Counted from the stretch's first letter, positions 16,729 through 55,516 are shown. The stretch is 64,000 nt of DNA from an uncultured candidatus Brocadiaceae bacterium (GCA_964521715.1 CAZFSS010000001.1:26802-90801); one strand, 5' to 3'. Notes: generated by a model from the letters alone, not told the origin. Numbers and translations: made by a program.

Positions 16729-16729
16729 T

Positions 16730-17110: not shown

Positions 17111-17157
17111 GCCGCCCGTCCCGACCGGCCATAGAGGAGTGGCGACCCTCTGGCGCG

Positions 17158-38404: not shown

Positions 38405-38405
38405 C

Positions 38406-39191: not shown

Positions 39192-39293
39192 TTGCTCTCC
39201 CTGGCTGCGGTGAAATGGCGGCGCGTCCGGGGCGAGGAGCTCGAAGCAGCACGCGGGCGGCAGGCGTTGACGCGCCGTCGGCCCGTGCGGGTG

Positions 39294-39548
39294 TTACTCG
39301 CCTTGCTCCTCGACGACGCGCGCGATGAAGTCGACGGCCGTCCCCACGGTCTGGACCTGCAGGGCGGCCTCCTCGTCCATCTCGATTTCGAACTCCTCCT
39401 CGAAGGCGGCGACGAGTTCGACGCTCTGGATGGACTCAGCTCCCAGATCCTGAACGAACCGCGAGTCGGGCGTAATGTCCTCGACGTTCACGCCCAGCAC
39501 TTCGCTGACTACCTCGCGGACCCTCTCCAGTATCTCCTCTTTTTCCAT
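39294..39548 (-). CDS. acyl carrier protein
   Basis: 84 aa, acidic, DLGAESIQSVELVAAFEEEF with the phosphopantetheine-attachment Ser (DLGAES). Confidence 0.85.
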   Translation of the reverse strand: MEKEEILERVREVVSEVLGVNVEDITPDSRFVQDLGAESIQSVELVAAFEEEFEIEMDEEAALQVQTVGTAVDFIARVVEEQGE

Positions 39549-39572
39549 GCTGGACCTCTTGCAGAGGATGCG

Positions 39573-40850
39573 TCAGCGGAACGCCTTCCGTCTTTCCCTC
39601 TTGACGATCTCCATCTTCTGGGGGCGGGTGAGCTCCTCGGTGTACTCGATCAGCTTGACCGCCGCGTCAGTCAGCTCGACGCCGCGCCGGTCCATTGCCG
39701 CCCGGGCCGTGTCCAGGCTCGCCGTCAGCCCAATTCCCTTGCCGATCCTGCCTTCCAGGAACCAGCAGAAGGAGGGGACGTACTTCGGCAGGATCCTGGA
39801 GCCGCCGACAAGATTGCACATTATGCCCACGACCGATCCCGTGTTCAAGAGCGTGCCGATGCTGGTTTTGGTGTGATCCCCGATGAAGGAGCCCACCTTC
39901 ATCGAGCCCGTGTCGGTCGGCTGCCCGTTCAGGTAGACGGTCACGTTGCCGTAGTCGTTTTTCAGGTCGCTGTTGGTCGTCAACGCGCCGAGGTTGACCC
40001 ATTCGCCCACGTAGCTGTGCCCCAGAAAGCCCGTGTGGTACTTGTTCGCATAGCCGTGGATGATGCTCTCCTCCACCTCCCCGCCGACGCGGCACACAGG
40101 CCCCAGAGAGGTGCCCTCGCGAATGAGCGCCTCGAACAGATGCGTCCGCGCCCCAATGAAGGCGGGGCCGTGTATGCTCGAATGGGCGTGCACGACGGCG
40201 CCCTCGTCGATGACGACCGGACCCTTGCGGCAGTCGATGAAGGCACAGGGCTCGACTTCGGCTCCCCTGCCCACGTGGAGGTCGGACGTGGCGCCCCAGA
40301 CGCCGGCGCCCTCGTCGACGTGGCCCTCGGTGGCGGCGCCGTAGGCGGCCGCGAAGTCCGCCTCGATCTCGTCGGCGTTCCGCCCGACGAGGTCCCAGGG
40401 GTACCCTATGAGGACGTCGTCGCAGGTCTCCGTGCCCAGTTCGTTCGCGGCCAGGGCGGCCAACTCGCGCGCGGAGCGGGCGGACAGCCTGGCCACAACG
40501 TCCCTGTCCAGGTAGGCCCAGACGACCGCGCCCTCCGCCGTGCCCGCCACCCTGCGCTCGGCCGCGTAGGAGTCCGCCGGCCCCTTCAGGATCGCACCCG
40601 CGTTGACCAGCAGGACGTCATCGTCGGCGGCCAGGCGCTCCTCGGCATTGACGGCGTCAGCGCCGCAGGTCTCCCTGGCGACGGCATCCAGGACGTCCCG
40701 CGTCTCCAGGTGGAGCTTGCATCCCGGGAACTTCATCTGCACCTTCTCGCGAAGGCTGAATGCCCCGCAACGCAGCTCGAAGACCGGCCGCAAGTAGGTG
40801 AGGGGATAGAGGCGGTCGAAGCCTTCGTCTTCGAAAAGGATGATCTTCAT
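39573..40850 (-). CDS. nucleotidyltransferase-like N-terminal domain + left-handed beta-helix (hexapeptide) protein, GlmU-like
   Basis: N-terminal MKIILFEDEGFDRLYPLTYLRPVFEL and C-terminal hexapeptide repeats (IGDHTKTSIGTLLNTGSVVGIMCNLVGG); 4-bp overlap with ackA stop. Confidence 0.65.
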   Translation of the reverse strand: MKIILFEDEGFDRLYPLTYLRPVFELRCGAFSLREKVQMKFPGCKLHLETRDVLDAVARETCGADAVNAEERLAADDDVLLVNAGAILKGPADSYAAERRVAGTAEGAVVWAYLDRDVVARLSARSARELAALAANELGTETCDDVLIGYPWDLVGRNADEIEADFAAAYGAATEGHVDEGAGVWGATSDLHVGRGAEVEPCAFIDCRKGPVVIDEGAVVHAHSSIHGPAFIGARTHLFEALIREGTSLGPVCRVGGEVEESIIHGYANKYHTGFLGHSYVGEWVNLGALTTNSDLKNDYGNVTVYLNGQPTDTGSMKVGSFIGDHTKTSIGTLLNTGSVVGIMCNLVGGSRILPKYVPSFCWFLEGRIGKGIGLTASLDTARAAMDRRGVELTDAAVKLIEYTEELTRPQKMEIVKRERRKAFR

Positions 40851-42052
40851 TGCGGGTCTTGCCTCGCGGCGATCTCGTAGGTCTCGATGGCTATCTGGAG
40901 CTCTTCGTTCGTCGGGACGACCAGGACGGCGGTCCGCGAGCCTTCGGCGCTGATCACGGCCTCGCGCCCGACTGCCTCGGCGTTCCTGCTCTTATCCAAT
41001 ACGACGCCCAGGTCCTGAAGGCCGATGCAGATGCGGCGACGCAGTTCGGCGCAGTTCTCGCCGATGCCGGCCGTGAAGACCACGCCGTCCACGCGGCCCA
41101 GCACGGCGAAGTAGGCGCCTATGTACTTGCGCGCCCGGTAGGCAAAGACGTCCAGGGCGATGTCCGCCTGCGCGTTGCCCGCGGAGGCCGCCTCGAGTAT
41201 CTCGCGCACATCGTTGCTCACGCCGCTGAGGCCGAGCAAGCCGCTCCGCCGGTTGAGCAAGTCGTAGACCTCGGTCGGACTCAAGCTCAGCCACTGCGCC
41301 AGGAAGTAGAAGAGCCCGGGGTCCACGTCCCCGCTGCGGGTCCCCATCACCAGGCCCTGAAGCGGCGTCATGCCCATGCTGGTGTCCACGGAGCGGCCGT
41401 TCCTCACGGCTGTGGCCGAGCAGCCGTTGCCCAGGTGGAGGGTCACGGCGTTTATCCTGCCGGGCGGTATGCCCAGGATGTCGGCGGCGCGCGAGGTCAC
41501 GTAACGGTGCGACGTGCCGTGGAATCCGTAGACCCTCACGTGGCGCTCCCTGTAGAGGGAGTAGGGGAGGGCGTAGAGGTAGGCCTCGGGGGCCATGGAC
41601 GTGTGGAAGGCCGTGTCGAAGACGGCCACCTGCGGCCTGTCCGGCAGCATGCGGAGGGCGGCCTCTATGCCCGCCAAGTTCGGAGGATTGTGCAAGGGGG
41701 CGAGAACTGCGTTGTCGCGGATCAGCCGGAGCGTCTCCTCGTCCACCAGCGCACTGTCCGACATCTCCCCGCCGTGCACGACCCGATGCCCGACGGCGCC
41801 GATCTCGTCCGCGCCGCTCAGAATCCGCAGCCTCGCGTCCAGGAAGCGATCCATCAGTATCCGCAGGGCTTCGCCGTGCTCGTCCGCGTGGCAGGCCTCC
41901 TCAACGTCCGTCCGGCCGGCGGAGAAGGACATGACGGCGTCCCCCTCGCCGATCTTCTCGACCAGGCCGTTCGCCAGGGCGCGCCTCTGCGGCATCTCGA
42001 ACAGGGTGCACTTCAGCGAAGAGCTGCCCGCGTTGATGACCAGTACCTTCAT
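40847..42052 (-). CDS. ackA: acetate kinase
   Basis: MKVLVINAGSSSLKCTLFEM..., HLGNGCS, VFTAGIGEN are acetate kinase signatures. Confidence 0.95.
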   Translation of the reverse strand: MKVLVINAGSSSLKCTLFEMPQRRALANGLVEKIGEGDAVMSFSAGRTDVEEACHADEHGEALRILMDRFLDARLRILSGADEIGAVGHRVVHGGEMSDSALVDEETLRLIRDNAVLAPLHNPPNLAGIEAALRMLPDRPQVAVFDTAFHTSMAPEAYLYALPYSLYRERHVRVYGFHGTSHRYVTSRAADILGIPPGRINAVTLHLGNGCSATAVRNGRSVDTSMGMTPLQGLVMGTRSGDVDPGLFYFLAQWLSLSPTEVYDLLNRRSGLLGLSGVSNDVREILEAASAGNAQADIALDVFAYRARKYIGAYFAVLGRVDGVVFTAGIGENCAELRRRICIGLQDLGVVLDKSRNAEAVGREAVISAEGSRTAVLVVPTNEELQIAIETYEIAARQDPQ

Positions 42053-42055
42053 GGC

Positions 42056-43027
42056 TCAGACCTGCAGCGCCGTCACGGCGGTCAGGGCTACTACGTCCTC
42101 CACGCTGGCGCCGCGGGACAGGTCGTTGACCGGCTTGGCGAAGCCCTGAAGGATCGGTCCTATGGCGTGCGCGCCGCCTGTGTACTGGACGGCTTTGTAG
42201 GCGATGTTGCCCGAGTTCAGGTCGGGGAAGATCAGGACGTTGGCCTGGCCCGCCACTTCGCTTTTGCCCTTCAGCTTGAGGCGAGCCACTTCCGGCACGA
42301 GGGCCGCGTCGAACTGCATGTCTCCCTCCACGAAGCCTTCTTTCAGCCTGGCGCGGGCCAGCTCGACGGCACGGCGGACCAGGTCGACCTTGGGATGGCT
42401 CACGCCTCCCCCGGTGGAGAAGGAGAGCATAGCGATGCGGGGAACCTGGCGCAAGAAGACGCGGGCCGTCTCAGCGCTGGCCAGCGCGGTGTCCGCCAGG
42501 TCCTCGGCATCGGGCTCGACGTTGACCGCGCAGTCGGCGAACACGAGTGGCACGTCCCGCCGGTCGCCCAGGCGGGGCAGCACCATGATGAAGGAACTGG
42601 ATGGCCTGCGGATCCCCTCTCGGAGGCCGACGACCAGTTGCGCCGCCTGGATGACGCTGCCGGTCAGGTGAGCGATGCCCGCTACCATGCCGTCGGCGCA
42701 ACCCAGGGCCACCATCATCGCGCCGTGGATCAGCGGCCTGCGGACCATCCGTGCCGCAAGCTTCTCGCTCACGTGACGCCGGCCTGCGTAGTGCAGCGCG
42801 AAGCGCTCGAGCCGCTCGGGGTCCTCGATCGGCAGGGCCCTGACGCCCGGACTCAGGCGCTCCGGCAGGTCAGCCGAAGGTCCGATGAGCAAGGGGTCCG
42901 CGATGCCTTCTTCGGCCACGTGCTCGGCGGCCTGGCGGATGCGGGGATCGGCGGGCTCGGGATAGACAATCGTGCGACGCACCTTCGTCGCTCTGGACTT
43001 GAGTTCTTCCACGAACTGCGAACTCAT
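42056..43027 (-). CDS. pta: phosphate acetyltransferase
   Basis: TIVYPEPADPRIRQAA...IFPDLNSGNIAYK...SRGASVEDVVALTAV matches the Pta catalytic domain; ATG at 43025-43027. Confidence 0.9.
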   Translation of the reverse strand: MSSQFVEELKSRATKVRRTIVYPEPADPRIRQAAEHVAEEGIADPLLIGPSADLPERLSPGVRALPIEDPERLERFALHYAGRRHVSEKLAARMVRRPLIHGAMMVALGCADGMVAGIAHLTGSVIQAAQLVVGLREGIRRPSSSFIMVLPRLGDRRDVPLVFADCAVNVEPDAEDLADTALASAETARVFLRQVPRIAMLSFSTGGGVSHPKVDLVRRAVELARARLKEGFVEGDMQFDAALVPEVARLKLKGKSEVAGQANVLIFPDLNSGNIAYKAVQYTGGAHAIGPILQGFAKPVNDLSRGASVEDVVALTAVTALQV

Positions 43028-43358
43028 GGGCTTCCCTCGAGACATGGCGCGCCTGGGACCGTCCAACGGGGGTCAGGTGCGCCGAGGACCGAAAGGGCCT
43101 GGAAAAAGAGACGTCCTGAAGCCGGGCGCGAGCCGCCCCGCTCCGAGGAGTCCCCCCCCGGGGGATGGGCTGCCGACTGAAAGCCGATGGCTCCGCTCGC
43201 TATGGGCCCGCAGAGCCTAAAGCCGACAGATACGCCTCAGGGACTGAGGGCAGAGGAAGGAAACAAAGCCGTGCAGGCCGCGACTGCCGCCAGAGCCAGA
43301 CACAAGCATACCGCCCTGGGTGACGGAGCATGAGACGGCATATAGGCAGGGCGAGCCC

Positions 43359-43595
43359 TCAGTGGGCAAGCCGCCCGGACCGGTACGGCGTCACGCTTTC
43401 CTCGTAGATCATGCTGGGTTCGTCCAGGCCGAGCGCCCAGTCCATGTCGTCCACGATGCCGTCCAGGTCTCTGTTCACAACGTAGTCGCGTTGACGGGTG
43501 CGCTCCGCCGAGAACGCGTTGGAACAACCGGTCGACAACGCCATGCCTGCGATGACCAACACGCCCACGAACCAGCCAAGCAAACGGTTCCTCAT
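43359..43595 (-). CDS. small lipoprotein (hypothetical)
   Basis: 78 aa; signal peptide with lipobox MRNRLLGWFVGVLVIAGMALSTGC; GGGAG RBS 9 nt upstream. Confidence 0.55.
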   Translation of the reverse strand: MRNRLLGWFVGVLVIAGMALSTGCSNAFSAERTRQRDYVVNRDLDGIVDDMDWALGLDEPSMIYEESVTPYRSGRLAH

Positions 43596-43862
43596 CAGCG
43601 TCTTCTCCCTTCCGATCGCGCCGCACCTGGCGCGGCGACGCCCGCCGCATGCGGCCAGCCGGAGCAAGGGTGCGTGCCAGAGAACGCTCCCCTCGCAGGC
43701 ACAAGCCGCTCCTCGGGCCGCGGACGCGTACCAGGGACACACCAGCGCGGCCCTCATCCGCACCCAACCGCCCGCCACAGCGACAGGCGGACAGCACGTG
43801 GGAAGAGTACTCTCACGCACGTGCCAGCCCCGTCCGGCACGCAACTTCGCAGCACGGCCCTG

Positions 43863-44144
43863 CTACTTGCCGCCGGTGGCTGCTTCTTGAGCTTTGCGGG
43901 CTTCCTCAATGGCCTTCTGCCGCTCAGCTGCCGCTTGCGTCTGCGCTGTCTGCTGCTCCTGGCGCGCCGTTTCCGGCACAGCGGCCTGCTGTTGCTGCTG
44001 CTGCGGGGCCTTGGCTGCCGCTGCGCCCGCCGCACCGGTGGCCGGCACAACGGGTGCAGGCGCCGGCTTCTTGCCGCCCGAAAACAGGATGATCACCACT
44101 ACGATCACTACGACCACTATTACGGCTATCAGCCCCTTCTTCAT
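43863..44144 (-). CDS. membrane-anchored low-complexity (Ala/Gln-rich) protein (hypothetical)
   Basis: N-terminal TM helix (LIAVIVVVVIVVVIILF) then PAPAPVVPATGAAGAAAAKAPQQQQQQ... ; GGAGGGAG RBS. Confidence 0.45.
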   Translation of the reverse strand: MKKGLIAVIVVVVIVVVIILFSGGKKPAPAPVVPATGAAGAAAAKAPQQQQQQAAVPETARQEQQTAQTQAAAERQKAIEEARKAQEAATGGK

Positions 44145-44446
44145 CTACTCCCTCCGGACAAGAACGTGCCTTGCGTCGAGAAACAACCTCAAGCCTCAGT
44201 GACTCGCCGCACCGCGGGACGCGGCAGCGGTACAGAACCCATAAGCGCTAAGTGCCTCGCCTCCCTTCGCCGGTAATCCCATGCCGGGCCCAGGCCCTGA
44301 AGCCACAATGGAATCTGATCCCAACGTGGGCCGCATTATAACCGCAGGAAATCTCGCCTTCAAGTCCTAACGGCCCCCTCTGCAAAGCCCGTCGGGAGCC
44401 CCACGCCCGGCGGCGAGCGCTCCCAGGATGGGGGGCAGCCGGGGCT

Positions 44447-44474
44447 TGACTGCGACCGAAGAAGGATTACAATG
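44447..44474 (+). promoter_or_regulatory. sigma-70 type promoter of mtnP (TTGACT-16-TACAAT)
   Basis: cttgact gcgaccgaagaaggat tacaat, about 85 nt upstream of the 44558 ATG; coordinates +/-2. Confidence 0.5.
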
Positions 44475-44557
44475 CGCCTGCGACGCCTTCCGAGCCTCCA
44501 CCGCGTGCGGCTTCTCCCGCGATTCGTTGGTGCGTCCCGCATTTGAGGGCAGCGCAG

Positions 44558-45418
44558 ATGGACACTCCGCTGGGCATCGTCGGGGGCAGTGGCCTCTACC
44601 GAATGGAGGGGCTCGAGGTCGAGCAGGAGGCGGAGGTCCGGACGCCCTTCGGCGAACCGTCGGACCGTTACGTGCTGGGCCGGCTGGACGGGCGGCCCGT
44701 CGCGTTCCTGGCCAGGCACGGGCGCGGGCATACCCTCATGCCCGGCGAGGTGAATTACCGGGCCAACGTCTACGGCTTCAAGAAGCTGGGAGTCCAGCGC
44801 CTGGTGGCCGTCTCTGCCGTCGGCAGCATGAGGGAGGAAATCCATCCGCTGCACATCGTGTTGCCCGATCAGTTCATTGATCGGACGCGCGGGCGGGCGG
44901 ACACATTCTTCGGCCGCGGCGTCGTGGCCCACGTTTCCTTCGCGCAGCCGGTCTGCCCCGAGCTGCATGGCGCGCTCCTGCGGGCGGCGGAATCCTCCGG
45001 CGCCACCGTCTGGCCGGGGGGGACGTACGTCTGCATCGAGGGGCCGGCCTTCTCCACGCGGGCCGAATCCCGACTCTACCGTTCCTGGGAAGTCAGCGTG
45101 ATCGGCATGACGAACCTGCCCGAGGCAAAGCTTGCCCGCGAGGCGGAGATGTGTTACGCTACGCTCGCCCTCGTGACAGACTTCGATTGCTGGCACGAAG
45201 CCGAGGAGGAGGTCTCCGTGGAGATGCTGCTGGATAACCTGCAGAGCAACGCCGGCACGGCCCGGCAGATCCTGAGGGCGCTCGTGCAGACGGTTCCTCC
45301 CGAACGCGCCTGCCCCTGTCGGGACGCCCTCCGAGACGCCATCGTTACCTCGCGCGAACACATCCCGGCGGAGACCAGAAGTAGACTGGACATCATCATT
45401 GGAAGATACGTAAAATAG
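44558..45418 (+). CDS. mtnP: S-methyl-5'-thioadenosine phosphorylase
   Basis: LGIVGGSGLY, MTNLPEAKLAREAEMCYATLALVTDFDCW typical of MTAP/PNP family II. Confidence 0.9.
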   Translation: MDTPLGIVGGSGLYRMEGLEVEQEAEVRTPFGEPSDRYVLGRLDGRPVAFLARHGRGHTLMPGEVNYRANVYGFKKLGVQRLVAVSAVGSMREEIHPLHIVLPDQFIDRTRGRADTFFGRGVVAHVSFAQPVCPELHGALLRAAESSGATVWPGGTYVCIEGPAFSTRAESRLYRSWEVSVIGMTNLPEAKLAREAEMCYATLALVTDFDCWHEAEEEVSVEMLLDNLQSNAGTARQILRALVQTVPPERACPCRDALRDAIVTSREHIPAETRSRLDIIIGRYVK

Positions 45419-45461
45419 CGCACGGATAGACTCCGACCGGTTCTGTGGGAGACTCGGGGAC

Positions 45462-46004
45462 ATGGCAGAGGAAATCGTCATAAAGTGCCAGAAGTGCGGA
45501 CAGAAGCTGAAGCTGACCGACAGCCGTTATATCGGGCGCAAGGGGCGGTGCCCGAAATGCGGGTCCGTGATCCGGTTCCAGAAGAGCGGCGAGGGCAAAG
45601 CGGACGGCAGCGAGCAGCAGGTCGTGGAGGTGGACGAAGTCGCCACCCGCAAGGACGCCCTGCTGAGGATACAGAAGCAGAATCAGGTGGCTGTCGTCAG
45701 CTTCTCGACCTCCCGGATACTGGATCAGACGAACGTCCAGCAGCTCGGCGAGGAGCTCGACGCCCTCGTGGACGAGCACAAGCTCGACAAGATCGTGCTG
45801 AACTTCGCCGGCGTCACCTACATGAGCAGCGCCGTCATGGGCAAGCTGGTCAGCCTCCTGAAGAAGGTCAAGACCGCCGGCGGCCGGTTGAAGCTCTGCA
45901 GTATCGAAGACAGCATCTATGAGATCTTCGAGATCATGCGGTTCGACAAGATGTTCGACATCGCGCAGAATGAAGACGACGCGGTGATCGACCTGATGGA
46001 CTGA
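45462..46004 (+). CDS. zinc-ribbon + STAS domain protein (anti-sigma-factor antagonist-like)
   Basis: N-terminal CQKCGQKLKL...CPKCGSVIRF zinc ribbon; C-terminal STAS-like fold (VAVVSFSTSRILDQTNVQQLGEELDALV...KIVLNFAGVTYMSSAVMGKLVSL). Confidence 0.75.
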   Translation: MAEEIVIKCQKCGQKLKLTDSRYIGRKGRCPKCGSVIRFQKSGEGKADGSEQQVVEVDEVATRKDALLRIQKQNQVAVVSFSTSRILDQTNVQQLGEELDALVDEHKLDKIVLNFAGVTYMSSAVMGKLVSLLKKVKTAGGRLKLCSIEDSIYEIFEIMRFDKMFDIAQNEDDAVIDLMD

Positions 46005-46009
46005 GTCGC

Positions 46010-46939
46010 ATGGTTCCCGATCGGGTCCCGCCCGGCAGCGACGGGTATAAGACATTCGGGTGGCAAGGCATCAACCTGACGGTCCCCCCGGCGTGGGAGC
46101 TTGTCTTCACTCAGGGCGGGCACCAGAGCGGCTACTTCAGACTCGCCGACGAGGACAGGACGCGTCTGGAGGTGCGCTGGGACGCCTCGCGAGAGGCCCT
46201 GCCGCCTGCCGACACGGTGAGCGCCTACCTGGACAAGCTCGCGAAGAAAGCCCGCAAGCGGGGAGATGAGTTCTCCTGCCAGCGCAGCCTGAAGCTGGCC
46301 TCGCCGCCTCAGAAGGAGGTCGAGTGCTATCGCTGGGCGGCCGACGGGCAGGGCATCGGGATGATGAGCCGATGCGCCGCCTGCGGCCGGGCCGTGCATC
46401 TGCAACTGCTGGGCGTGGCGGACGAATCGCTCAGAGGCCTGGCCCGGACCGTGTTCGGGTCTCTGAAGGACCACCCGGACGGGGACTGGCACCTGTGGCG
46501 CTTCTTCGACGTGGAATTCAGGAGCCCCGTGGGTCTCCGCTTGTTGAGGCCCAACCTGCAAGCGGGCTGCATTCGCATGCTGTTCGGGCAGGGGCGGACG
46601 AGGCTCGAGTTCATCCGGGTCAGCCTGGCCCAGGTCGTGTTGGGGGGCGAGGGCCTGGCGGAGTGGTTCCCCCGCTTCTACGCCAAGGCTTTGAAGCGCC
46701 GTTCCTACTCGATTCGCGGCACCGACGTGAAAGGGCACCCGGGCATCATCGTGGAGGGGCGCCCGTGGCTGCTGGTCAACCCGCTGCGGCTTGTCGGGCG
46801 TGGCCGGGCCGTCCGTGTCGCCGTCTGGCACTGCCAGGACTCGAACAGGCTCCTCGCCTGCTGCTTCGACGGGCCCGAGGCGGACGCCGGCGTCCTGTCG
46901 GATGCCGTGGACGGCTTTCGGTGCTGCGAAGGCGCCTGA
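46010..46939 (+). CDS. hypothetical protein (no family recognised; Cys-containing)
   Basis: 309-aa ORF starting 6 nt after the STAS gene stop, protein-like composition, internal CAACGR and CC motifs; function unknown. Confidence 0.55.
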   Translation: MVPDRVPPGSDGYKTFGWQGINLTVPPAWELVFTQGGHQSGYFRLADEDRTRLEVRWDASREALPPADTVSAYLDKLAKKARKRGDEFSCQRSLKLASPPQKEVECYRWAADGQGIGMMSRCAACGRAVHLQLLGVADESLRGLARTVFGSLKDHPDGDWHLWRFFDVEFRSPVGLRLLRPNLQAGCIRMLFGQGRTRLEFIRVSLAQVVLGGEGLAEWFPRFYAKALKRRSYSIRGTDVKGHPGIIVEGRPWLLVNPLRLVGRGRAVRVAVWHCQDSNRLLACCFDGPEADAGVLSDAVDGFRCCEGA

Positions 46940-46958
46940 GGAGTGCGATCGCCACGCA

Positions 46959-47360
46959 ATGAGACTGTTCGGCGGCAAAAGGCAGAAGGGCCCCGAACTG
47001 GACCGGGACCAGTCCCTCTCGGCGAAGCCCTTCCTGAACCGGCGGGTCAAGGTGGAGAGGACCGATGACGGGACCGTCATCCTCCAGGTCCCTCGCCGCA
47101 ATACGGCGATGATGAGGACCGTCTCGCGGTTCTTCCGGATCCCTCCTTACAGGCAGGTGGCACTTGACGAGCTCGGCACCTTCGTAATAGAACTTTGCGA
47201 TGGAACGCATGCCGTGCGGGATATAGTTGATAAGTTCGCGGAAAGGTTTAGACTGAACCGCCGAGAGGCGGAGGTTTCGACAAGTGCTTTCCTGCGGACC
47301 CTCGCCGGGCGTTCGATAGTCGGCCTGCTCATCGAGGAGACCGACCGGTCCGGGCGTTAG
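46959..47360 (+). CDS. PqqD-family protein (RiPP-recognition-element-like)
   Basis: LQVPRRNTAMMRTVSRFFRIPPYRQVALDELGTFVIELCDGTHAVRDIVDKFAERFRLNRREAEVSTSAFLRTLAGRSIV matches the PqqD pattern (LxxxGxxIWxLxDGxxTxxEIxxxL...DVxxFLxxL). Confidence 0.7.
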   Translation: MRLFGGKRQKGPELDRDQSLSAKPFLNRRVKVERTDDGTVILQVPRRNTAMMRTVSRFFRIPPYRQVALDELGTFVIELCDGTHAVRDIVDKFAERFRLNRREAEVSTSAFLRTLAGRSIVGLLIEETDRSGR

Positions 47361-47388
47361 CCTGTCCGGGGCGGCAGTGGGCTTCTGA

Positions 47389-48813
47389 TTGCGGAGGATG
47401 TCCGTGGCAGACAAGCATGGCGTGGCGCCACGTGGACGGCACGGGATCGGAAGACAGATCGTGCTGCCTCTGAGCAAGGCCTTCGAGATCGCCTGGAAGG
47501 GCATAAGGATCCGCATCTGGCGTTCGCTCATCACGATGAGCGGCATCATCCTGGCCATCGCCTTCCTGATGTCGGTCTGGACCACAAGCGTGTTCACGCG
47601 GGCGCTGCGCAGCGTTAAGCCGACCGACCCGATGTACGCGCTGGTGCAGGACTCTCTGGAGGCGGAAGCCATCGCCAGCGGCGGAGTCAGCATACGCTGC
47701 GCCGTGGTGGAGAGGGAGAACGAGGCGGTCACGGTTGAACGCGTTACTCCGGCGGCGAGCATCCGCGGTTTCCTGGATGCTGTGGAGGCGTTCCGCGCCG
47801 TATCCGTCCCGTTGGACGCCCAAGCGATCGGGGAATTGCTCGCCGGAGACGAAGCGCCCGGCGCGGTGATCCTTGCGGGGCTGCCGGACGCGGCCTCCGC
47901 CCTCGCCGTGAAGAACGCCCTCGGGAGCTACGTCGAGCAAGGCGGCTTCCTCCTGGTCTACGGCACCGAAGGGCTTCAGGCGCCGCCGTCGGCCGGGGAG
48001 AACGCCCTGGCCGAGCTGCTGCCGGGCGTGCCTGCGGGCGGGACCTTCTCGACGGAGGGAGCCCAGATCCGGCCCGGCGAACTCCTGGCGCAGGTGCTGT
48101 GGCAGAACCATCCCCGGGCTACCTTTGTGCAGACCTCCGGCAAGCCGGGCGCGGAGGCCCTCGCGACGGCGGACGGACGGGCCCTGGGCTGGCGGCAAGA
48201 CGTGGGTAAGGGCTCCGTGGCGTGGTACGCCGTGGCCGATGTTTCCGCTGCTGACCCGGACGTCGTGTCCTGGTTCCTGCGGGGTCAGATGGCGGAGGCC
48301 ACGGCAGAACCGGGCGGCAGGAGCGGTCCGCTGGTGCGGCTGCTGGCAAGAGGCGCCGGAAAGGCCGGTGAGCAGCGAGACATGCGAGGCGTCTGGCTGG
48401 TCACTCTGAGCCTCATGGTCTGCGTCGTCGGCATCACCAACGCCATGCTGATGAGCGTGACCGAGCGCTTCCGGGAGATCGGGACGATGAAGTGCCTGGG
48501 CGCGCTCGATAGGTTCGTCGTCAAGCTGTTCCTGATAGAGTCGTCGCTGCAGGGCGTGGCCGGCTCGTTGCTCGGAGCCGTGATCGGGTTCATGCTGTCC
48601 TTCGGCCGCGCGCTGTTCACCTTCCACGTCAAGGACGTGCAGACGGGGGAGGGCTACTGGCTCGCCCTGCGGTACTTCCCCGGCCTCGGCCTGCTGGGCT
48701 GGGGGGCGGTGGCCATGGGCACGGGGATCGTGCTGAGCGTGGTCGCCGCCATTTACCCCGCCATACGGGCTGCCCGGATGGAGCCCGTGCAGGCCATGCG
48801 CGCTGAGGCGTAG
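47389..48813 (+). CDS. ABC transporter permease (FtsX/MacB-type, large periplasmic domain)
   Basis: N-terminal TM helix, ~250-aa extracytoplasmic domain, C-terminal FtsX-type 3-TM bundle (GITNAMLMSVTERFREIGTMKCLGA); TTG track start, ATG alternative at 47398. Confidence 0.85.
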   Translation: MRRMSVADKHGVAPRGRHGIGRQIVLPLSKAFEIAWKGIRIRIWRSLITMSGIILAIAFLMSVWTTSVFTRALRSVKPTDPMYALVQDSLEAEAIASGGVSIRCAVVERENEAVTVERVTPAASIRGFLDAVEAFRAVSVPLDAQAIGELLAGDEAPGAVILAGLPDAASALAVKNALGSYVEQGGFLLVYGTEGLQAPPSAGENALAELLPGVPAGGTFSTEGAQIRPGELLAQVLWQNHPRATFVQTSGKPGAEALATADGRALGWRQDVGKGSVAWYAVADVSAADPDVVSWFLRGQMAEATAEPGGRSGPLVRLLARGAGKAGEQRDMRGVWLVTLSLMVCVVGITNAMLMSVTERFREIGTMKCLGALDRFVVKLFLIESSLQGVAGSLLGAVIGFMLSFGRALFTFHVKDVQTGEGYWLALRYFPGLGLLGWGAVAMGTGIVLSVVAAIYPAIRAARMEPVQAMRAEA

Positions 48814-48867
48814 GTGCTGCCGGAGCGGGACGCCGGCCGTGTCGGGAAATGAGAGGAGGGGTAAACC

Positions 48868-49677
48868 TTGGCGGAAGCAACGGCTGTGGAAACCGGCGTG
48901 GGCCAGCAGATCGTGGTCCGCACCAAGGACGTCAAGAAGGTCTACAAGATGGGCAAAGTCGAGGTCCACGCCCTCAAAGGCGTAACGCTGGAGGTCTCGA
49001 TCGGCGAATACATCAGCATCATGGGCCCGAGCGGGAGCGGCAAGACGACCCTGTTCAACATGATCGGCGCCCTTGACAAGCCGAGCAGCGGCCAGGTCTA
49101 CATCGACGAGGTGGACGTGGCCCAGCTGGACGCCTATGAACTGGCCTGGCTGCGCTGCCGCAAGATCGGCTACATCTTCCAGACCTTCAACCTCATCCCC
49201 GTCATGTCCGCCCTGGAGAACGTGACGCTGCCCATGACGTTCGCCGGACTGACCACCGACGAGGCGCGCGACAAGGGCATGGACCTCCTGGACCAGGTGG
49301 GGCTGGCCGAGCGCTACGACCACAAGCCGTTCGAGCTTTCCGGCGGCCAGCAGCAGCGCGTCGCCATCGCCCGCGCAATGGCCAACTCCCCCAGCATCAT
49401 CCTGGCCGACGAGCCGACCGGCAACCTCGACCTGGCCACCGGCAAGGAGATCATCCAGCTGCTGGGCGAGATGAACAAGAAGCAGCACGTGACCATCATC
49501 ACCGCCACGCACGACATCAAGATGCTCAGCGCCTCCGACCGCATCATCTGGGTGCGGGACGGCACACTCGCGAAGATCGAACGCCGCGAGGACCTGGACA
49601 TCCAGGTGGGCTCCATCGGAGGCGACGCCGAAGGCGGCGTAGAGGCCAGCCTCCGCGGCGCGCTGGAGGAGGATTGA
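48868..49677 (+). CDS. ABC transporter ATP-binding protein (MacB/LolD type)
   Basis: Walker [10 protein letters not shown], signature [14 protein letters not shown], Walker [13 protein letters not shown]-loop. Confidence 0.95.
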
Positions 49678-49744
49678 GCCGGGCGCAGCCGCCCCTTTGA
49701 GCGTGAGCCACGCGTCCTGCGGCCCGCCCGGAGCCGGACGGGCT

Positions 49745-50932
49745 TCAGTAGATCCTGCTCAGCTCCGCCCCCGGATAGTAGTACCGCAGGATCTCCCACC
49801 AATCCCTGCCGGCCGCCGCCAGCCCGCGTGCGCCCCACTGGCACAGGCCGACGCCGTGACCGTGACCGTGTCCCTTGAAGAGGAACCGGCCGTCGCCTGC
49901 CTCCACGGTGAAGCGGGCGCTCTTGAGCAGGTTCGAGCCCACGCTGGACCGGAAGGCGTTCGCGCTGACCCGCAACGTGCCGTTGACCTCAACGTAGCGC
50001 GCGTACCCGTCCCCTTCGACGCCCACGGGCGATATCGTGCGCACGGGCTCTGCGTCGTCGCGACCGAGCGCCTGGGAGATCCGGTAGCCCGGGATTTCCG
50101 CGCGCCATTCGTAGGTGGGGCTCTGCCGGCACCACTCGCACGGTACCCCCTGCAAAGGAGGAATGGGGTCCATGGCGAACGCCTTGTCGACTGCGGCCGT
50201 GTGCCCTCCGCACGTGCTGTGGAAGTAGGCAGGCAGTGCCTTCGACCCGTAGGTGAGCACCACTCCGGCCGTCAGCCCCACGGCCAGGTCGGCGGAGGCG
50301 TTCTCCTCGGCGCTGCCGCCGTAGGCCATGTCGTACGGGCTCAGATAGCCCTTGTCCTGCAGGGCGTAGAGCATGAAGGTCCTGGCCGCCACGGCCTGGG
50401 CCATGAGGGCGTCGAGCGGCCAGGTTCGGTACACCTCGGTGCCGACGACGCTGCGCAGGTAGTCGTCCGGCCTGACGAGGTCCACCGCGACGATGCGGCC
50501 GTCAGAGCCGGCTTCGACGGCGAGCACGCCCCTGTACTTGCGCCCGCCGAGCCTGAACGGGCCGGAGGAAGGCTGCAGTTCCAGCTTGGCCCAGGGCTGC
50601 TGCTCGTCGTCCAGCACCAGATGCCCCTCCGCAACGGCCAACCGCCACGGCCCGATGCCGCCGGTCAGGGCCTCCCGCGTCCCGTCGGCCACGCCGTACC
50701 AGGTGCCGCCCTCGGCGCACCCCGCGAGCAGCTCCCCGTCCGATCTGGCCAGTTGGGCTCGCATGAGGGGCGGCTCGGCCACGGCCGGCGGAGCCGGCGG
50801 GTATGCGAGCGGCCACTGCGGCCTGGCCGGCCGGCAGGAGAGAAGCAACAGCGCCGGGCCCGCCACCATCAGGACAAGGAGCAGTGCCCCGCCCACACCG
50901 CATGCGGCCTTTAGATGGGTCCGCTTCCTCAC
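49745..50932 (-). CDS. SpoIID/LytB domain protein
   Basis: Signal/TM N-terminus; SpoIID-type motifs ([42 protein letters not shown]). Confidence 0.85.
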
Positions 50933-50975
50933 GGCCTCCTCGCTCGGGTTGCGCTGGCGCTCATGCCTCGCCGGG

Positions 50976-51557
50976 TCAGCCTTTCTCCATCGGGCCAGGG
51001 CCCTGGTAGACGTGGCGCGTCGTGTCCCTGAATCTCTCCCACTCGCTGAAGACGCAGCCGCAGTAGCTCTGCAGGTAGAGCCTCATCTCCCCGGCCCGGC
51101 GGTGGCTCTCCTCGGCCAGCGGCCGCCAGTCGAGGTACAGGAACGGGACCCCCGCCAGGTCGGCGCATTGCTCGCCAATGCTCCGGGCCAGGTCATGGTA
51201 CTGGTGATGGCTGGCCAGCAGCGTTGTGGTAAACGCGCTGAACCCGCGCCGGGCCGCCTCCTGCGCCGTGCGCTTCAGGCGGAAGCGGTAGCAGTCCGCG
51301 CAGCGTTCCCGGCGTTCAACGCCGGACCAGCGCACGGACCTCAGGTACTCTTCCAGCCCGTAGTCCTCCTCGCAGAGGACACCGATCGGCAGGCGCTCCT
51401 GCAGCACCTTCAGGGCCTTCTTGCGCCGGCGGAACTCGATCAACGGGTGGATGTTGGGGTTGTAGAAATGCCCGGTCACGTCGTGCCCCAGGTCCACCAG
51501 ATTCTCATACGGGCCGATGGCGCAGGGAGCGCAGCAGATGTGCAGGAGGATTCGCAT
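50976..51557 (-). CDS. queH: epoxyqueuosine reductase QueH (DUF208)
   Basis: MRILLHICCAPCAIGP N-terminus with conserved Cys cluster, plus CADCYRFRL and CGCVFS. Confidence 0.9.
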   Translation of the reverse strand: MRILLHICCAPCAIGPYENLVDLGHDVTGHFYNPNIHPLIEFRRRKKALKVLQERLPIGVLCEEDYGLEEYLRSVRWSGVERRERCADCYRFRLKRTAQEAARRGFSAFTTTLLASHHQYHDLARSIGEQCADLAGVPFLYLDWRPLAEESHRRAGEMRLYLQSYCGCVFSEWERFRDTTRHVYQGPGPMEKG

Positions 51558-51594
51558 GGCGTGCTGGGGCGCGGACCGGGCGCGCGGAGGAGCT

Positions 51595-52644
51595 TCAGAA
51601 CAGGGCGCCTTGTCCCTCGCCGTCCTGTCCCTCGCCCAGGTGTTCGCGGACCATCTTTGCCCCGTCGGCGGTGAGGACGCGTCCGCGCGCCGTCCGCTCC
51701 ATCAGGCCCTCCCTGATCAGGAAGGGCTCGTAGACGTCCTCAATGGTGTCTTCCTCTTCGCCGACGACGGCGGCTATGGTCTTGAGGCCGACGGCCTGAC
51801 CGGCGTTGCGGGCCAGCACCAGGAGGATCCTGCGGTCCATCTCGGCGAGGCCCATCTGGTCGACTCCCAGTCGGGCGAGTCCCTCCAGGGCCAGTTCGCA
51901 CGTGACCGCGGAGCGGCCCTGTGCCTGGGCCACGTCCCGGATCCGTCGCAGGAGGCGATTGGCGACCCGAGGGGTGCCGCGGGCGCGCCGGGCGATCAGC
52001 GTCGCCGCCTCTTCGTCAATGCCTATGTTGAGGACGCGGGCGCTGTTCTTCAGGATGCAGGTGAGCTCGTCCGGCGTGTAGAAGTCGAGTCTCTCCATTA
52101 TCTGGAACCGGCCCCGCAGAGGCGGGGAGAGCAGGCCTTCCCGCGTCGTCGCGCCGATCAAGGTGAAGGGCTTCAGGTCCATCCTGACCGAGCGGCTGTG
52201 AGGCCCGGAGTCGATCATGATCGAGATGAAGAAGTCCTCCATCGCCGTGTAGAGGAACTCCTCGACGCGCACGTCGAGACGATGTATCTCGTCGATGAAG
52301 AGGATGTCGCCCGCCTGCCGGTTCGTCAGCAGGCCGACCAGGTCGCGCGCCTTGGTGAGCGCGGGCCCGCTGGTCGGCTTGATGTCCACTTGGAGCTCAT
52401 TGGCGATGATGTAGGCCAGGGTCGTCTTGCCCAGGCCGGGCGGCCCGCTGAAGAGGATGTGGTCCAGGGCCTCGCCCCGCATTCTGGCTCCCTGGATCCA
52501 CGTCTTCAGGTTCTCGATGGTCTTGGGCCGGCCCACGAAGTCCCTGAACGAACGAGGCCGCAGCATGCCGTCCAGCGCGCGCTCGTCGTCCTGGGGAAAC
52601 CCCGAGTATACGCTCCGGTCTCTCGTGGCAGCCATTTGCCGCAC
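51595..52644 (-). CDS. ruvB: Holliday junction branch migration DNA helicase RuvB
   Basis: LFSGPPGLGKTTLA Walker A, DEIHRL Walker B, winged-helix C-terminus. Confidence 0.95.
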   Translation of the reverse strand: MRQMAATRDRSVYSGFPQDDERALDGMLRPRSFRDFVGRPKTIENLKTWIQGARMRGEALDHILFSGPPGLGKTTLAYIIANELQVDIKPTSGPALTKARDLVGLLTNRQAGDILFIDEIHRLDVRVEEFLYTAMEDFFISIMIDSGPHSRSVRMDLKPFTLIGATTREGLLSPPLRGRFQIMERLDFYTPDELTCILKNSARVLNIGIDEEAATLIARRARGTPRVANRLLRRIRDVAQAQGRSAVTCELALEGLARLGVDQMGLAEMDRRILLVLARNAGQAVGLKTIAAVVGEEEDTIEDVYEPFLIREGLMERTARGRVLTADGAKMVREHLGEGQDGEGQGALF

Positions 52645-52665
52645 GTCGCTGCGAGATCAATGCTC

Positions 52666-53247
52666 TCAATGGGAGAGCGCTTCTTCAACCAGGCTCTGTC
52701 TGTCCGCATCGGCGCCGAGCTTCTTCACGGCCGCCTTCACGGCCCTCTCGGCCGCCGCCCGCGATTCGCCCAGGGCGATCAGAGCTGCGACGGCGTCGCG
52801 GGCGACCTGGCCGGCCGGCCCCTCCCAGGGCTCGACGGCCAGTCCCTCGACGGGCCCCTGAAGCTCGGCCACCAGCCTCCTGGCCGTCTTGGCTCCGATG
52901 CCCTTCACCATGCTCTTGAGCGCGTCGACGTCCTCGTCCAGGACGTAGCGCTTGAGCTGCCCGGGCGTGCATCCGCTCAGGATCCGCATGGCCACCATCG
53001 GCCCGATCTGGCTGACGCCCAGCAGCATGTGGAAGAGCTGGCGTTCGACCTCGGTGGCGAACCCGTACAGCCGCAGCTCGTCCTCGCGCACGTGCAGGCA
53101 GGTCAGGAGCCGGACCTCTTGGCCGACCTTGGGGAGGGACTCATAGGTGGCCAGAGAAACGTGCAGGCGCAAACCGACCCCGGCCGTCCGAACGATGGCG
53201 ACGCCAGGGCTCTTGGAGGCAAGCTCGCCCTGGAGGAAGTCGATCAT
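52666..53247 (-). CDS. ruvA: Holliday junction DNA helicase RuvA
   Basis: MIDFLQGEL...LYGF N-terminal OB domain, HhH motifs, C-terminal RuvB-interaction domain. Confidence 0.9.
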   Translation of the reverse strand: MIDFLQGELASKSPGVAIVRTAGVGLRLHVSLATYESLPKVGQEVRLLTCLHVREDELRLYGFATEVERQLFHMLLGVSQIGPMVAMRILSGCTPGQLKRYVLDEDVDALKSMVKGIGAKTARRLVAELQGPVEGLAVEPWEGPAGQVARDAVAALIALGESRAAAERAVKAAVKKLGADADRQSLVEEALSH

Positions 53248-53253
53248 CCCGAA

Positions 53254-54507
53254 TCAGTCGCTCTTGAGGGAGAGCCCCAGCGCGCCCAGTTTGGTCTCGA
53301 TCTCCTTCAGGCTGGTCGCGCCGAAGTTAGGGACGCCCAGCAAGTGCTTCCTGGTCAGTTGGATCAACTGGCCGACCGTCGTCACTCCCAACCGTTCCAT
53401 ACACTTGCGGGACCGGGTCGAGAGCTCAAGCTCCTCGACCGACATGTTCAGCCTTTCCTGGACCGGTATGTCCTCGCCGGCCTCGAGCGCGCTGATCGCG
53501 CGGCCCGTCCTGGCGCCTGTGGCCTCGTAGCGGGCCAACAGATCCTGCACTTCGTGCTCGTTGAGCATGTTGTCCCGCACGGCGGGGCCGGGCATCGAGG
53601 CGCCGATCTCTCCCAGGCCTCCCTCGGGCAGGCCGAATATCTCGTCCATCGTCCTCAGGCGCTGCGGCTTGCTCACGTCGACGTACATCGTCAATGACGA
53701 CTCGGCGTCCTTCAGGTACAACTGCGCCTGCTTGTGCGTCGGCTCGATGGCCAGCACACGCTTGTAGCAGTTGATCGCCTCCTCGTATTCTCCGTGGTCT
53801 TCGTAGAGGACGCCCAGGTTGATCAGCGCGCCCACGTACGTGGGCTGGAGCCTGACGCAGCGCTCGTAGAGCCCCCTGGCGCGGTCGTCTTCGCCGTTCA
53901 GGTCGCAGTTCAGCGCCAGGCGGAACAGGCTGCGGGTATGCTTCGGGTCCTTGGTCAGAGCCGCCTCGAAGAACTCGATGGCCTGGCCGTACTCCCCCTC
54001 GGTCTCGGCCACGCGGCCCCTCGCGTAGAGGACGTCGGCCGACGCCCCCCCATCGTCGGGCAGGCCCTTCAGCAGCTTCTCCGCCGGTTCGTAGTCGCGC
54101 AGGTTGCAGTGGGCCTCGATCATCAGGACGTCGGTTTCCCGGTCGTCCTCGCTGAGTCGGCCCTTGTCCAGGTACTCGATGGCTTCCCGTTCCCGGCCCA
54201 TCTTCAGGTATGCGCGACCGAGGAAATGGGAAGCCGTCTTGCGCGTACGGATCTTCTCGAGCTCCCGCGCTGCGGCGCCGTAGTCGCCCCTCGCGAAGTG
54301 CAGTATGCCGACCTTCTCCAGCACGTCGCGCTGCTGGTCCTCGGAAGCTCCTTCGAGCTGCGCTTGCACGTCTCTGATCCGGCTGTCGGTGAAGTCGACG
54401 TTCGAGTAGCTCTCGTAGATGCGCTGAACCAGCTCATCGAAGTTCGTGCGGTCGAGCACTCCGGCCAGCAGCTCGTCCAACTTCTGCTTCGTGGCAGCAG
54501 TCGTCAT
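53254..54507 (-). CDS. TPR-repeat protein with C-terminal RNA polymerase alpha-subunit CTD-like domain
   Basis: Multiple TPR repeats (AIEYLDKG..., YARGRVAETEGEYGQAIEFFEAAL, YVGALINLGVLYEDHGEYEEAINCYKRVLAI); the last ~65 aa (MSVEELELSTRSRKCMERLGVTTVGQLIQLTRKHLLGVPNFGATSLKEIETKL) match the RpoA alpha-CTD helix-hairpin-helix. Confidence 0.75.
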   Translation of the reverse strand: MTTAATKQKLDELLAGVLDRTNFDELVQRIYESYSNVDFTDSRIRDVQAQLEGASEDQQRDVLEKVGILHFARGDYGAAARELEKIRTRKTASHFLGRAYLKMGREREAIEYLDKGRLSEDDRETDVLMIEAHCNLRDYEPAEKLLKGLPDDGGASADVLYARGRVAETEGEYGQAIEFFEAALTKDPKHTRSLFRLALNCDLNGEDDRARGLYERCVRLQPTYVGALINLGVLYEDHGEYEEAINCYKRVLAIEPTHKQAQLYLKDAESSLTMYVDVSKPQRLRTMDEIFGLPEGGLGEIGASMPGPAVRDNMLNEHEVQDLLARYEATGARTGRAISALEAGEDIPVQERLNMSVEELELSTRSRKCMERLGVTTVGQLIQLTRKHLLGVPNFGATSLKEIETKLGALGLSLKSD

Positions 54508-54600
54508 AATGGTCCTTTAGCAAATGACTTAGGGCATGGAAGGAGGGCCATACAAGCGACATGCGACAGCACGCGCTTTTGTCTCAGGGTACCAGAAAGT

Positions 54601-54629
54601 TTGACCAGTGTCAAGCTATCTGGTATGCT
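54601..54629 (+). promoter_or_regulatory. sigma-70 type promoter of kdsA-nadD (TTGACC-17-TATGCT)
   Basis: ttgacc agtgtcaagctatctgg tatgct about 60 nt upstream of the kdsA ATG; coordinates +/-2. Confidence 0.45.
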
Positions 54630-54691
54630 GCTTGCTCTGGGGGCGCGACTGCTGCAAGGACCATGGTGGGCTCGGAAGGAAAGCCCGTCCG

Positions 54692-55516
54692 ATGGGAAGA
54701 GTCAACATAACGGACTCCGTCGCCGTCGGCGATGGCCTGCCCCTGTTCGTGGTGGCCGGGCCCTGCGTCATCGAGAGCAGGCAGTTGTGCATCGACATTG
54801 CGGGCCGCATGAAGGAGGCCTGCGACGAGCTGGAGCTGCCCTACGTCTTCAAGGCGTCCTTCGACAAGGCCAATCGGACCAGCATCGCGTCCTTCCGCGG
54901 CGTGGGGCTCGAGGAGGGGCTGCGCATCCTGGGCCAGGTGAAGGAGCAGGTGCATGTGCCCGTCCTGACGGACATCCACACGCCCGACCAGGCCGCGCCC
55001 GTCGCGCAGGTCGTCGACGTGCTCCAGATCCCCGCCTTCCTGTGCCGGCAGACAGACCTGCTGGTGGCCGCCGCCCGCACGGGCGCCGCGATCAACATCA
55101 AGAAGGGCCAGTTCATGGCTCCGGATGAGATGAAGCGCGCGGCGGAGAAGGTCACCCTGATGGGCAACGACCGCGTGATGCTGTGCGAGCGGGGCACGTG
55201 CTTCGGTTACCACGACTTGGTGGTGGACATGCGTTCCATCGTGCGCATGAAGTCCATCGGGCACCCGGTCCTGTTCGATGCCACGCATTCGACGCAGCGG
55301 CCGGGAGGCCTCGGCTTCCAGAGCGACGGGGAGCGGCAGATGATCCCCGCGTTGGCCCAGGCGGCCGTGGCCGTCGGCGTCGACGGCGTGTTCCTGGAAG
55401 TCCATCCCGACCCAGACACGGCCCTCTCCGACGGCGCCAGCATGCTGCACATCAATGCGGCTCCGGCCTTGCTGGCGCAGTTGAAGGCCATCTCGACTCT
55501 TCCGGGAATAAGGTGA
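54692..55516 (+). CDS. kdsA: 3-deoxy-8-phosphooctulonate synthase
   Basis: FVVAGPCVIES, FKASFDKANRTS, QIPAFLCRQTDLL KDO8P synthase motifs. Confidence 0.95.
   Translation: MGRVNITDSVAVGDGLPLFVVAGPCVIESRQLCIDIAGRMKEACDELELPYVFKASFDKANRTSIASFRGVGLEEGLRILGQVKEQVHVPVLTDIHTPDQAAPVAQVVDVLQIPAFLCRQTDLLVAAARTGAAINIKKGQFMAPDEMKRAAEKVTLMGNDRVMLCERGTCFGYHDLVVDMRSIVRMKSIGHPVLFDATHSTQRPGGLGFQSDGERQMIPALAQAAVAVGVDGVFLEVHPDPDTALSDGASMLHINAAPALLAQLKAISTLPGIR

Follow-up and report, generated by a model that had tools for sequence, protein, structure and literature searches.

Within a 64,000-nucleotide stretch of DNA from an uncultured candidatus Brocadiaceae bacterium (GCA_964521715.1 CAZFSS010000001.1:26802-90801), hereafter the window, positions 45462-49677 on the plus strand hold a compact cluster of five genes. 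In order, they encode a STAS-domain protein with an N-terminal zinc ribbon (Zn-ribbon-STAS; 45462-46004, 180 aa); a 309-residue protein that we call U309 (46010-46939); a PqqD-like protein, i.e. an extended version of the recognition element (RRE) known from the biosynthesis of peptides that are made on ribosomes and modified after translation (RiPPs) (46959-47360, 133 aa counted from its ATG); an FtsX-type permease (47389-48813, 474 aa counted from a TTG); and an ATP-binding cassette (ABC) ATPase (48868-49677, 269 aa). A preliminary description of the window had proposed an uncharacterised module of five tightly packed, co-directional genes at this place. Open reading frame (ORF) calls confirm the five genes and their tight packing, and correct the spacing given there (6, 20, 29 and 55 bp) by one nucleotide in each case, to 5, 19, 28 and 54 nt. 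The module itself holds up, with a redefined core: U309, the RRE protein, the permease and the ATPase are found as a group in no fewer than three phyla of uncultured bacteria, and the STAS protein belongs to the unit only in the clade of the window.

This division between a widespread core and a local addition emerged from a scan of close relatives, in which one genome was taken per GTDB species and which yielded 17 loci, 15 from Planctomycetota and two from Latescibacterota. In all 15 Planctomycetota loci, which come from metagenome-assembled genomes (MAGs), tblastn recovers the same order, MTAP-STAS-U309-PqqD-FtsX-ABC, as far as the contigs reach. The additional gene at the head of this series, of the MTAP type (5'-methylthioadenosine/purine nucleoside phosphorylase; 44543-45418, plus strand; PNP_UDP_1, 8e-43), ends 43 nt upstream of the STAS gene in the window. 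It precedes STAS in every clade locus with enough DNA, and wherever a clade locus has upstream DNA, the gene immediately before U309 is STAS. Within the clade, the ATPase is the most conserved gene of the unit (82-94% identity to the window), followed by STAS (49-89%), the PqqD-like protein (46-87%), U309 (43-77%) and the permease (42-77%), and the order is also held in a relative at 47% identity. Farther away, the unit becomes smaller. For example, a low-GC relative whose U309 is 27% identical has U309-PqqD-FtsX, with a permease of 204 aa and without STAS; the distant loci L028 and L029 carry U309-PqqD-FtsX-ABC, with a permease of 176-241 aa, between unrelated flanks; and the two Latescibacterota loci keep U309-PqqD and nothing else of the unit. 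The cassette with unrelated flanks is found at 27-33% identity, and its genes are in places even closer together than in the window, U309 and PqqD overlapping by 26-28 nt in L026 and L029 and PqqD and FtsX by 4 nt in L028. In L029, a DUF4258/DUF2283 pair resembling a toxin-antitoxin module sits between the short FtsX and ABC ATPase genes (9902-10367).

An independent sample was drawn from metagenomes with a degenerate DNA pattern for the N-terminal U309 motif FGWQGx5PxxW. The scan returned 120 stretches, of which 56 encode a U309 relative, the rest being chance matches, and these represent 53 distinct U309 loci. Among the 31 loci that extend 900 bp or more downstream, 27 have a PqqD-like gene after U309 on the same strand, and among the ten that extend 3 kb or more in each direction, eight contain FtsX or ABC genes; STAS and MTAP appear solely in loci of the window's clade. 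Two apparent fusions, the "U309" ORFs of 436 and 536 aa in L118 and L119, were rejected as upstream over-extensions in high-GC DNA. The co-occurrence that the preliminary description left to be established is conserved from the window's clade to genomes labelled Latescibacterota and Gemmatimonadota. Might these simply be unrelated genes that happen to be neighbours? From 100% identity down to 27%, and from one phylum to another, the genes keep their order and stay adjacent, far beyond what chance would allow; the neighbourhood survey refutes this explanation, to which we attach next to no probability. In short, what is conserved at the core is U309 paired with PqqD, in most cases joined by FtsX and ABC, and STAS and MTAP belong with it in this clade only, MTAP as a syntenic neighbour and probably not as a functional part.

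A second architecture speaks to the same point. In several loci, the cassette is accompanied by a gene for a giant FtsX protein of ~1,600 aa and one for a polytopic membrane protein of 680-805 aa; these two genes lie upstream of U309-PqqD in L026 (738-7978), L131 (1006-8081) and L066, and downstream of U309-PqqD-FtsX-ABC in L151 (5942-12805). The giant protein combines a signal-like N-terminus, an M28-peptidase-like domain, three transmembrane helices, a MacB_PCD domain, the FtsX transmembrane helices and a cytoplasmic tail of ~170 aa, and in L151 it also has a discoidin domain. We tried the polytopic protein as an OPT oligopeptide transporter and dropped the assignment, as the protein has no relative in Pfam, NCBIfam or the PDB. 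The same six genes thus occur in permuted order (L131 and L066 versus L151), which argues for a functional unit.

U309 had been described as a protein of no recognisable family, and so it proves. Pfam and NCBIfam assign it to no family, the sole match being DcrB at 13.4 bits against a cut-off of 27.2; none of 61 family members is significant for any Pfam model; comparison with PDB sequences gave no match; and no housekeeping family turned up as a relative. The family is nevertheless large: a profile search over 1.84 billion cluster representatives found 1,954 clusters (50% identity) at E <= 1e-3 and 1,332 at E <= 1e-10, all of them without names and with taxon labels, where given, of Planctomycetota and Gemmatimonadota. 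A homologue search with U309 itself returned 66 proteins, all hypothetical, from MAGs labelled Planctomycetota or "Brocadiia". U309 is the founding member of this family, for which Pfam has no model.

The AlphaFold2 model of U309 is of high quality (predicted local distance difference test (pLDDT) score 91.6, predicted template-modelling (pTM) score 0.86) and consists of two similar domains, each of beta-sheet and helices, that together form a tandem PsbP/Mog1/DcrB-like fold. The similarity to this superfamily is structural, and by sequence U309 does not belong to the PsbP, DcrB/DUF1795 or Mog1 families. Proteins of this fold class bind proteins, helices or lipids; it is a binder fold and not an enzyme fold. 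Known tandem or dimeric binders of the PsbP/Mog1/DUF1795 fold include the type VI secretion immunity protein TplEi/Tli5, Tsi3, the Eag chaperones SciW and EagT6, DcrB and LpqN. U309 shares no sequence similarity with any of these and differs from them in being cytoplasmic and in a set of four cysteines (plus histidine) that would join both domains to the C-terminus; unlike the binders linked to type VI secretion systems, it has no genes of such a system nearby. The cysteines, C122 and C125 (separated by two residues), C275, part of a WHC motif, and the C-terminal C305 (usually as CH), are the hallmark of the family: 196 of 231 members carry the full set, and the four tend to disappear together. 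As judged from this sequence pattern, they may form a structural metal site, probably for zinc, that would link both domains to the tail.

The PqqD-like protein matches PF05402 (1.7e-9), and its AlphaFold2 model (pLDDT 82.6) superposes on PqqD and on RREs of the lasso-B1 type. Foldseek matched it to TbiB1 and 6jx3, both lasso B1 proteins, and to PqqD, with template-modelling scores of 0.81-0.85 on the target, and the lasso B1 RREs in question were solved with leader peptides. Compared with PqqD and the discrete RREs TbiB1 and TfuB1, with which it shares the winged-helix fold, the protein has ~45 residues more; the extra elements are an N-terminal helix and strand, a helix at 50-59 placed ahead of the third strand, and a further strand at the C-terminus. 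Its entire length is kept across phyla, including the N-terminal "L(S/T)RE..L...P.RN" segment, and this full-length conservation, added elements included, marks it as a dedicated RRE subfamily. It also differs from its structural relatives in company, having no precursor, B2 protease, cyclase or radical-SAM partner and a PsbP-fold protein as partner instead. When the PqqD-like and STAS proteins were used as queries in word-indexed searches for homologues, these retrieved clade orthologues only and no further contexts.

The permease carries a significant FtsX match (2e-14, residues 338-466), and its hydropathy profile places a first transmembrane helix at ~43-71, followed by ~260 extracytoplasmic residues and three further helices within 331-459. 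The ATPase (ABC_tran, 1.3e-32) is of the MacB/LolD/FtsE type. With the four-helix FtsX topology and the ABC ATPase, the two proteins classify as a type VII (MacB/FtsX) ABC transporter, and Pfam and NCBIfam uphold the earlier domain calls of STAS, PqqD, FtsX and ABC. The earlier label of a "MacB/FtsX-type" permease stands for the FtsX part only: the outer domain has no MacB_PCD match, is not of the Porter/Sabre kind and does not resemble an FtsX-type extracytoplasmic domain. Instead, it gives weak matches to DUF7408 (in eight of 14 orthologues, at best 7.6e-6), DUF4350 (in three) and GATase1_like (in two). In other lineages, most permease orthologues have almost no periplasmic domain; as called genes they are 176-241 aa long, with ~20-30 residues between the first and second transmembrane helices. 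Long and short forms share "RQIxLP" ahead of the first helix, "ER..EIGTMKCLGALD" and "YPA.RAAKM.P..AMR.E", and these common motifs make the permeases one distinct FtsX subfamily. Here, the N-terminal segment reads "GRQIVLP", and the N-terminal peptide at residues ~15-45 is "GRQIVLPLSKAFEIAW".

It could be asked whether this is merely the lineage's own LolCDE/LolDF or FtsEX housekeeping system with hitch-hiking neighbours. Among NCBIfam models, LolD and lolCE do score best, and of the solved structures in the PDB, LolF comes closest to the transmembrane part, ahead of YtrF, MacB and LolE; the similarity to all of these is confined to that part. However, every equivalog cut-off is missed widely. 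The ATPase scores 228.5 for LolD (cut-off 307.75), 218.4 for DarD (375), 206 for YbbA (336) and 203.3 for FtsE (264.85), and the permease 60.9 for lolCE (362.45) and 25.6 for FtsX_Gneg (255), so by these sequence models neither LolCDE/LolDF nor FtsEX is at hand. Moreover, Lol and FtsEX function needs the outer domain, which here is unrelated to Porter/Sabre or FtsX domains and is missing in most orthologues. We therefore regard a housekeeping origin as very improbable.

The STAS protein (Pfam STAS, 4.8e-17) exceeds the cut-off of TIGR00377 (59.6 bits versus 53.45), which identifies anti-sigma antagonists, and its closest solved relatives are the antagonists TM1442 and SpoIIAA. The zinc ribbon at its N-terminus (CxxC...CPxC) falls below the Pfam cut-off, yet it is invariant in orthologues; across 23 of them, the ribbon and the "YMSSAVMGKLV" segment are invariant or nearly so. 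The "YMSSAVMG" motif includes an invariant pair of serines, which we aligned by eye only with the DSSG site, where partner-switching proteins of the SpoIIAA/RsbV type carry a phosphorylatable serine. The cassette contains no gene for a kinase or phosphatase, such as the anti-sigma kinase and PP2C phosphatase of a partner-switching module. A precedent for a STAS protein in an ABC system exists in MlaFEDB, where MlaB regulates the ABC ATPase. The present unit resembles it in that the gene for a small STAS protein of the cytoplasm shares an operon with that for the ATPase; the permease fold differs, MlaE not being of the FtsX type, and the present protein differs from MlaB in its N-terminal zinc ribbon and in a sequence nearer to antagonists of the SpoIIAA/RsbV type. 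An ordinary second STAS protein is encoded in the window at 17158-17595 on the minus strand (STAS, 1.5e-19), ~28 kb from the cluster. Its neighbours are a single-domain response regulator (16730-17110) and, next in line, a sigma-54 enhancer-binding protein (15298-16728), and the three together (15298-17595, minus strand) are a signalling unit separate from the five genes.

What kind of machine would these parts make? The reading that we favour, and to which we give about even chances, is that the five genes are one operon-like unit encoding an undescribed variant of the type VII ABC system with cytoplasmic accessory subunits. The system has in common with FtsEX-EnvC, LolCDE-LolA, MacAB-TolC and YbbAP-TesA a separate LolD/FtsE-like ATPase and an FtsX-fold permease (one transmembrane helix, an outer domain, then three further helices), and the larger second FtsX paralogue of the sister loci suggests a heterodimer like that of LolC and LolE. 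According to PMC12646458, the described type VII partners EnvC, LolA, MacA-TolC and TesA are periplasmic. The present cassette has no gene for a periplasmic partner, whether a membrane-fusion protein or one of the EnvC, LolA or TesA type; its outer domain is GATase1-like and nearly absent in most orthologues; and it co-encodes two or three dedicated cytoplasmic proteins, as none of the type VII systems described in the literature does. Hydropathy shows no hydrophobic segment or signal peptide in the STAS protein, U309, the RRE protein or the ATPase, and all four are therefore predicted to be cytoplasmic. Our literature search found nothing pertinent that joins PqqD with FtsX, PqqD with MacB, or FtsX with STAS.

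Under this favoured reading, U309 and the RRE protein would be dedicated cytoplasmic subunits or adaptors whose docking partner is either the ATPase or the "RQIxLP" segment at the permease's N-terminus, an invariant stretch that we put forward, purely by inference, as a candidate linear motif for the RRE groove. Both folds are protein or peptide binders and not enzymes; the two proteins would either control the hydrolysis of ATP or offer up a ligand, be it a peptide or a protein. The FtsX helices, moved by ATP, would then perform work at or beyond the membrane, here by way of the GATase1-like outer domain and elsewhere by way of the giant paralogue. By analogy, the Zn-ribbon-STAS protein could be a clade-specific regulatory add-on that acts as MlaB does on MlaF or as a phosphorylatable anti-sigma antagonist. 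An output in the cell envelope is hinted at, each time weakly, by the M28 and discoidin domains of the giant paralogue, by an FtsW/RodA neighbour in one locus and by a SpoIID gene (Pfam) that lies convergently downstream of the cluster in the window.

Several points weigh against this picture. Where the subunits dock and what the machine does are guesses, it is in RiPP pathways that proteins of the RRE fold are best known, and the U309-PqqD pair may be independent of the transporter. In L025 and L047, for example, the pair lies without FtsX or ABC genes within several kilobases on either side; L074 and L052 lack even PqqD; and in L150 (4133-8018) a U309 homologue, without a PqqD-like gene, stands between FtsW/RodA and a TPR gene. 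The homologue in L150 begins 9 nt after the FtsW/RodA gene, and MreB is nearby. Such loci lend weight to an alternative in which U309 and the RRE protein form an autonomous cytoplasmic pair, e.g. a chaperone or regulator, whose proximity to FtsX/ABC reflects co-regulation or a common envelope process and not a complex. The pair is the most conserved element (those 27 of 31 loci), several loci of the L026 type also have no ATPase nearby, and both the FtsW/RodA association and the convergent SpoIID gene are in keeping with a role of this sort. On the other hand, most loci that are long enough have, next to the pair, a gene of one particular FtsX subfamily, in differing gene orders, and the stop and start codons of PqqD and FtsX overlap. 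On balance, we consider an autonomous pair unlikely.

The presence of an RRE raises a further alternative, leader-guided export, in which the RRE would bind the leader of a peptide or small protein encoded elsewhere, U309 would hold or process it and the FtsX/ABC transporter would export it, in the manner of a RiPP or bacteriocin. The RRE domain that an RRE-dependent RiPP cluster needs is certainly there, given the PF05402 match and a model that superposes on leader-bound lasso B1 structures. FtsX-type ABC systems also serve RiPP and bacteriocin export, and DarD (218 bits) and a lactococcin-972-type exporter (196 bits) are among the best models for the ATPase. In addition, discrete RREs without known partners are, according to the authors of RRE-Finder, either false positives or possible marks of unknown RiPP classes (PMC7470986). 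The remaining components of such a pathway did not appear. No precursor peptide gene lies in or beside the cluster, whose gaps of 5-54 nt hold no precursor-sized conserved ORF, and the relatives, which were searched for one, have no conserved small ORF either; a precursor at an unlinked site is possible. Genes for radical-SAM, YcaO, lasso cyclase/B2 protease or LanB proteins are absent from the window cluster and from the cassettes of L001, L026, L028, L029 and L151, in line with the preliminary description, which had reported no precursor, radical-SAM or lasso-cyclase gene. The one radical-SAM gene, near the cassette in L028, is on the opposite strand, two genes off, and does not recur.

A 68-aa ORF between U309 and PqqD in L002-L004 was considered as a precursor and rejected, as it is a low-complexity repeat present in other intergenic DNA too. 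In the low-GC relative L002, intergenic repeats at 581-763 and 2008-2287 read "WTMDYGL" and "QTTDDRR" in several frames and yield spurious ORFs that flank the U309 gene on both sides.

Beyond the missing genes, leader-guided export has against it the non-enzymatic binder fold of U309, the fixed syntenic place of the cassette across the whole clade, unlike that of sporadic biosynthetic clusters, and the outcome of a plasmid search, in which the cassette was not found. Moreover, MacB-type transporters are not known to move substrates across the inner membrane. The lack of precursor and tailoring genes in relatives, together with the class-wide synteny, argues against a RiPP pathway; a RiPP biosynthetic cluster is unlikely, and export guided by a leader is in our estimation doubtful. 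A defence role found no echo among the PADLOC models, which gave generic ATPase and LolE transmembrane matches only and nothing for U309 or the RRE protein. The general formula of the preliminary description, regulated export or peptide handling, is a reasonable guess.

If the favoured reading is correct, the cassette would represent a widespread type VII subfamily whose outer domain is minimal and which has two or three dedicated cytoplasmic partners, extending the ways in which mechanotransmitters are controlled or loaded. It would also provide a first functional context both for a large family (some 2,000 clusters at 50% identity) that Pfam does not cover and for the "orphan" discrete RREs of RiPP genome mining. 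As all carriers seen so far belong to the Planctomycetota, Gemmatimonadota and Latescibacterota and are uncultured, the system may be relevant to the envelopes of these groups, which are poorly understood. A bolder possibility, which we put forward tentatively and consider rather improbable, is a new class of envelope machine, a type VII motor addressed from the cytoplasm by the RRE and by a zinc-bearing tandem PsbP-fold clamp, which would choose specific peptides or proteins that bear a leader and would export them, insert them into the membrane or extract them; such a motor would amount to a leader-guided delivery route in PVC/FCB-group bacteria, unrelated to RiPP tailoring.

Some details of the locus complete the description. 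A longer ORF for the PqqD-like gene starts at a TTG at 46791, within the U309 gene, and this start is probably not used; for the permease, alternative starts exist at 47398 (ATG) and 47404 (GTG), and on identical contigs in public records the gene is called at 469 aa. The GC content of the window is high (about 0.64-0.73), and at third codon positions it reaches 0.87-0.93, as is typical of coding DNA, in the four ORFs that were scored, i.e. all except the PqqD-like one. Candidate sigma-70-like promoters lie at 45387-45416 (plus strand), directly upstream of the STAS gene, and at 44446-44473, upstream of the MTAP gene; each agrees with the consensus at 10 of 12 positions, and the scan gave five sites against 0.5 expected in shuffles, all of which are pattern matches only. 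An Rfam scan of the whole window showed no relevant element.

The cluster is surrounded by core chromosomal genes, without signs of mobile elements (38379-55516). Upstream are genes resembling those for acetate kinase and phosphotransacetylase (40847-43066, minus strand), and downstream are QueH (50976-51557, minus strand; Pfam), RuvB/RuvA-like genes (51595-53247, minus strand) and a KdsA-like gene (54608-55516, plus strand); all of these except QueH were read from translations. The 1.5-kb gap upstream of the MTAP gene contains a 93-aa ORF (43863-44144, minus strand) that has no Pfam match and reads as a hydrophobic N-terminal anchor followed by a low-complexity tail rich in Ala, Gln and Pro. 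Finally, an unusual fusion of 417 aa at 53254-54507 (minus strand) joins TPR repeats to a C-terminal RNA_pol_A_CTD domain (9.3e-19).

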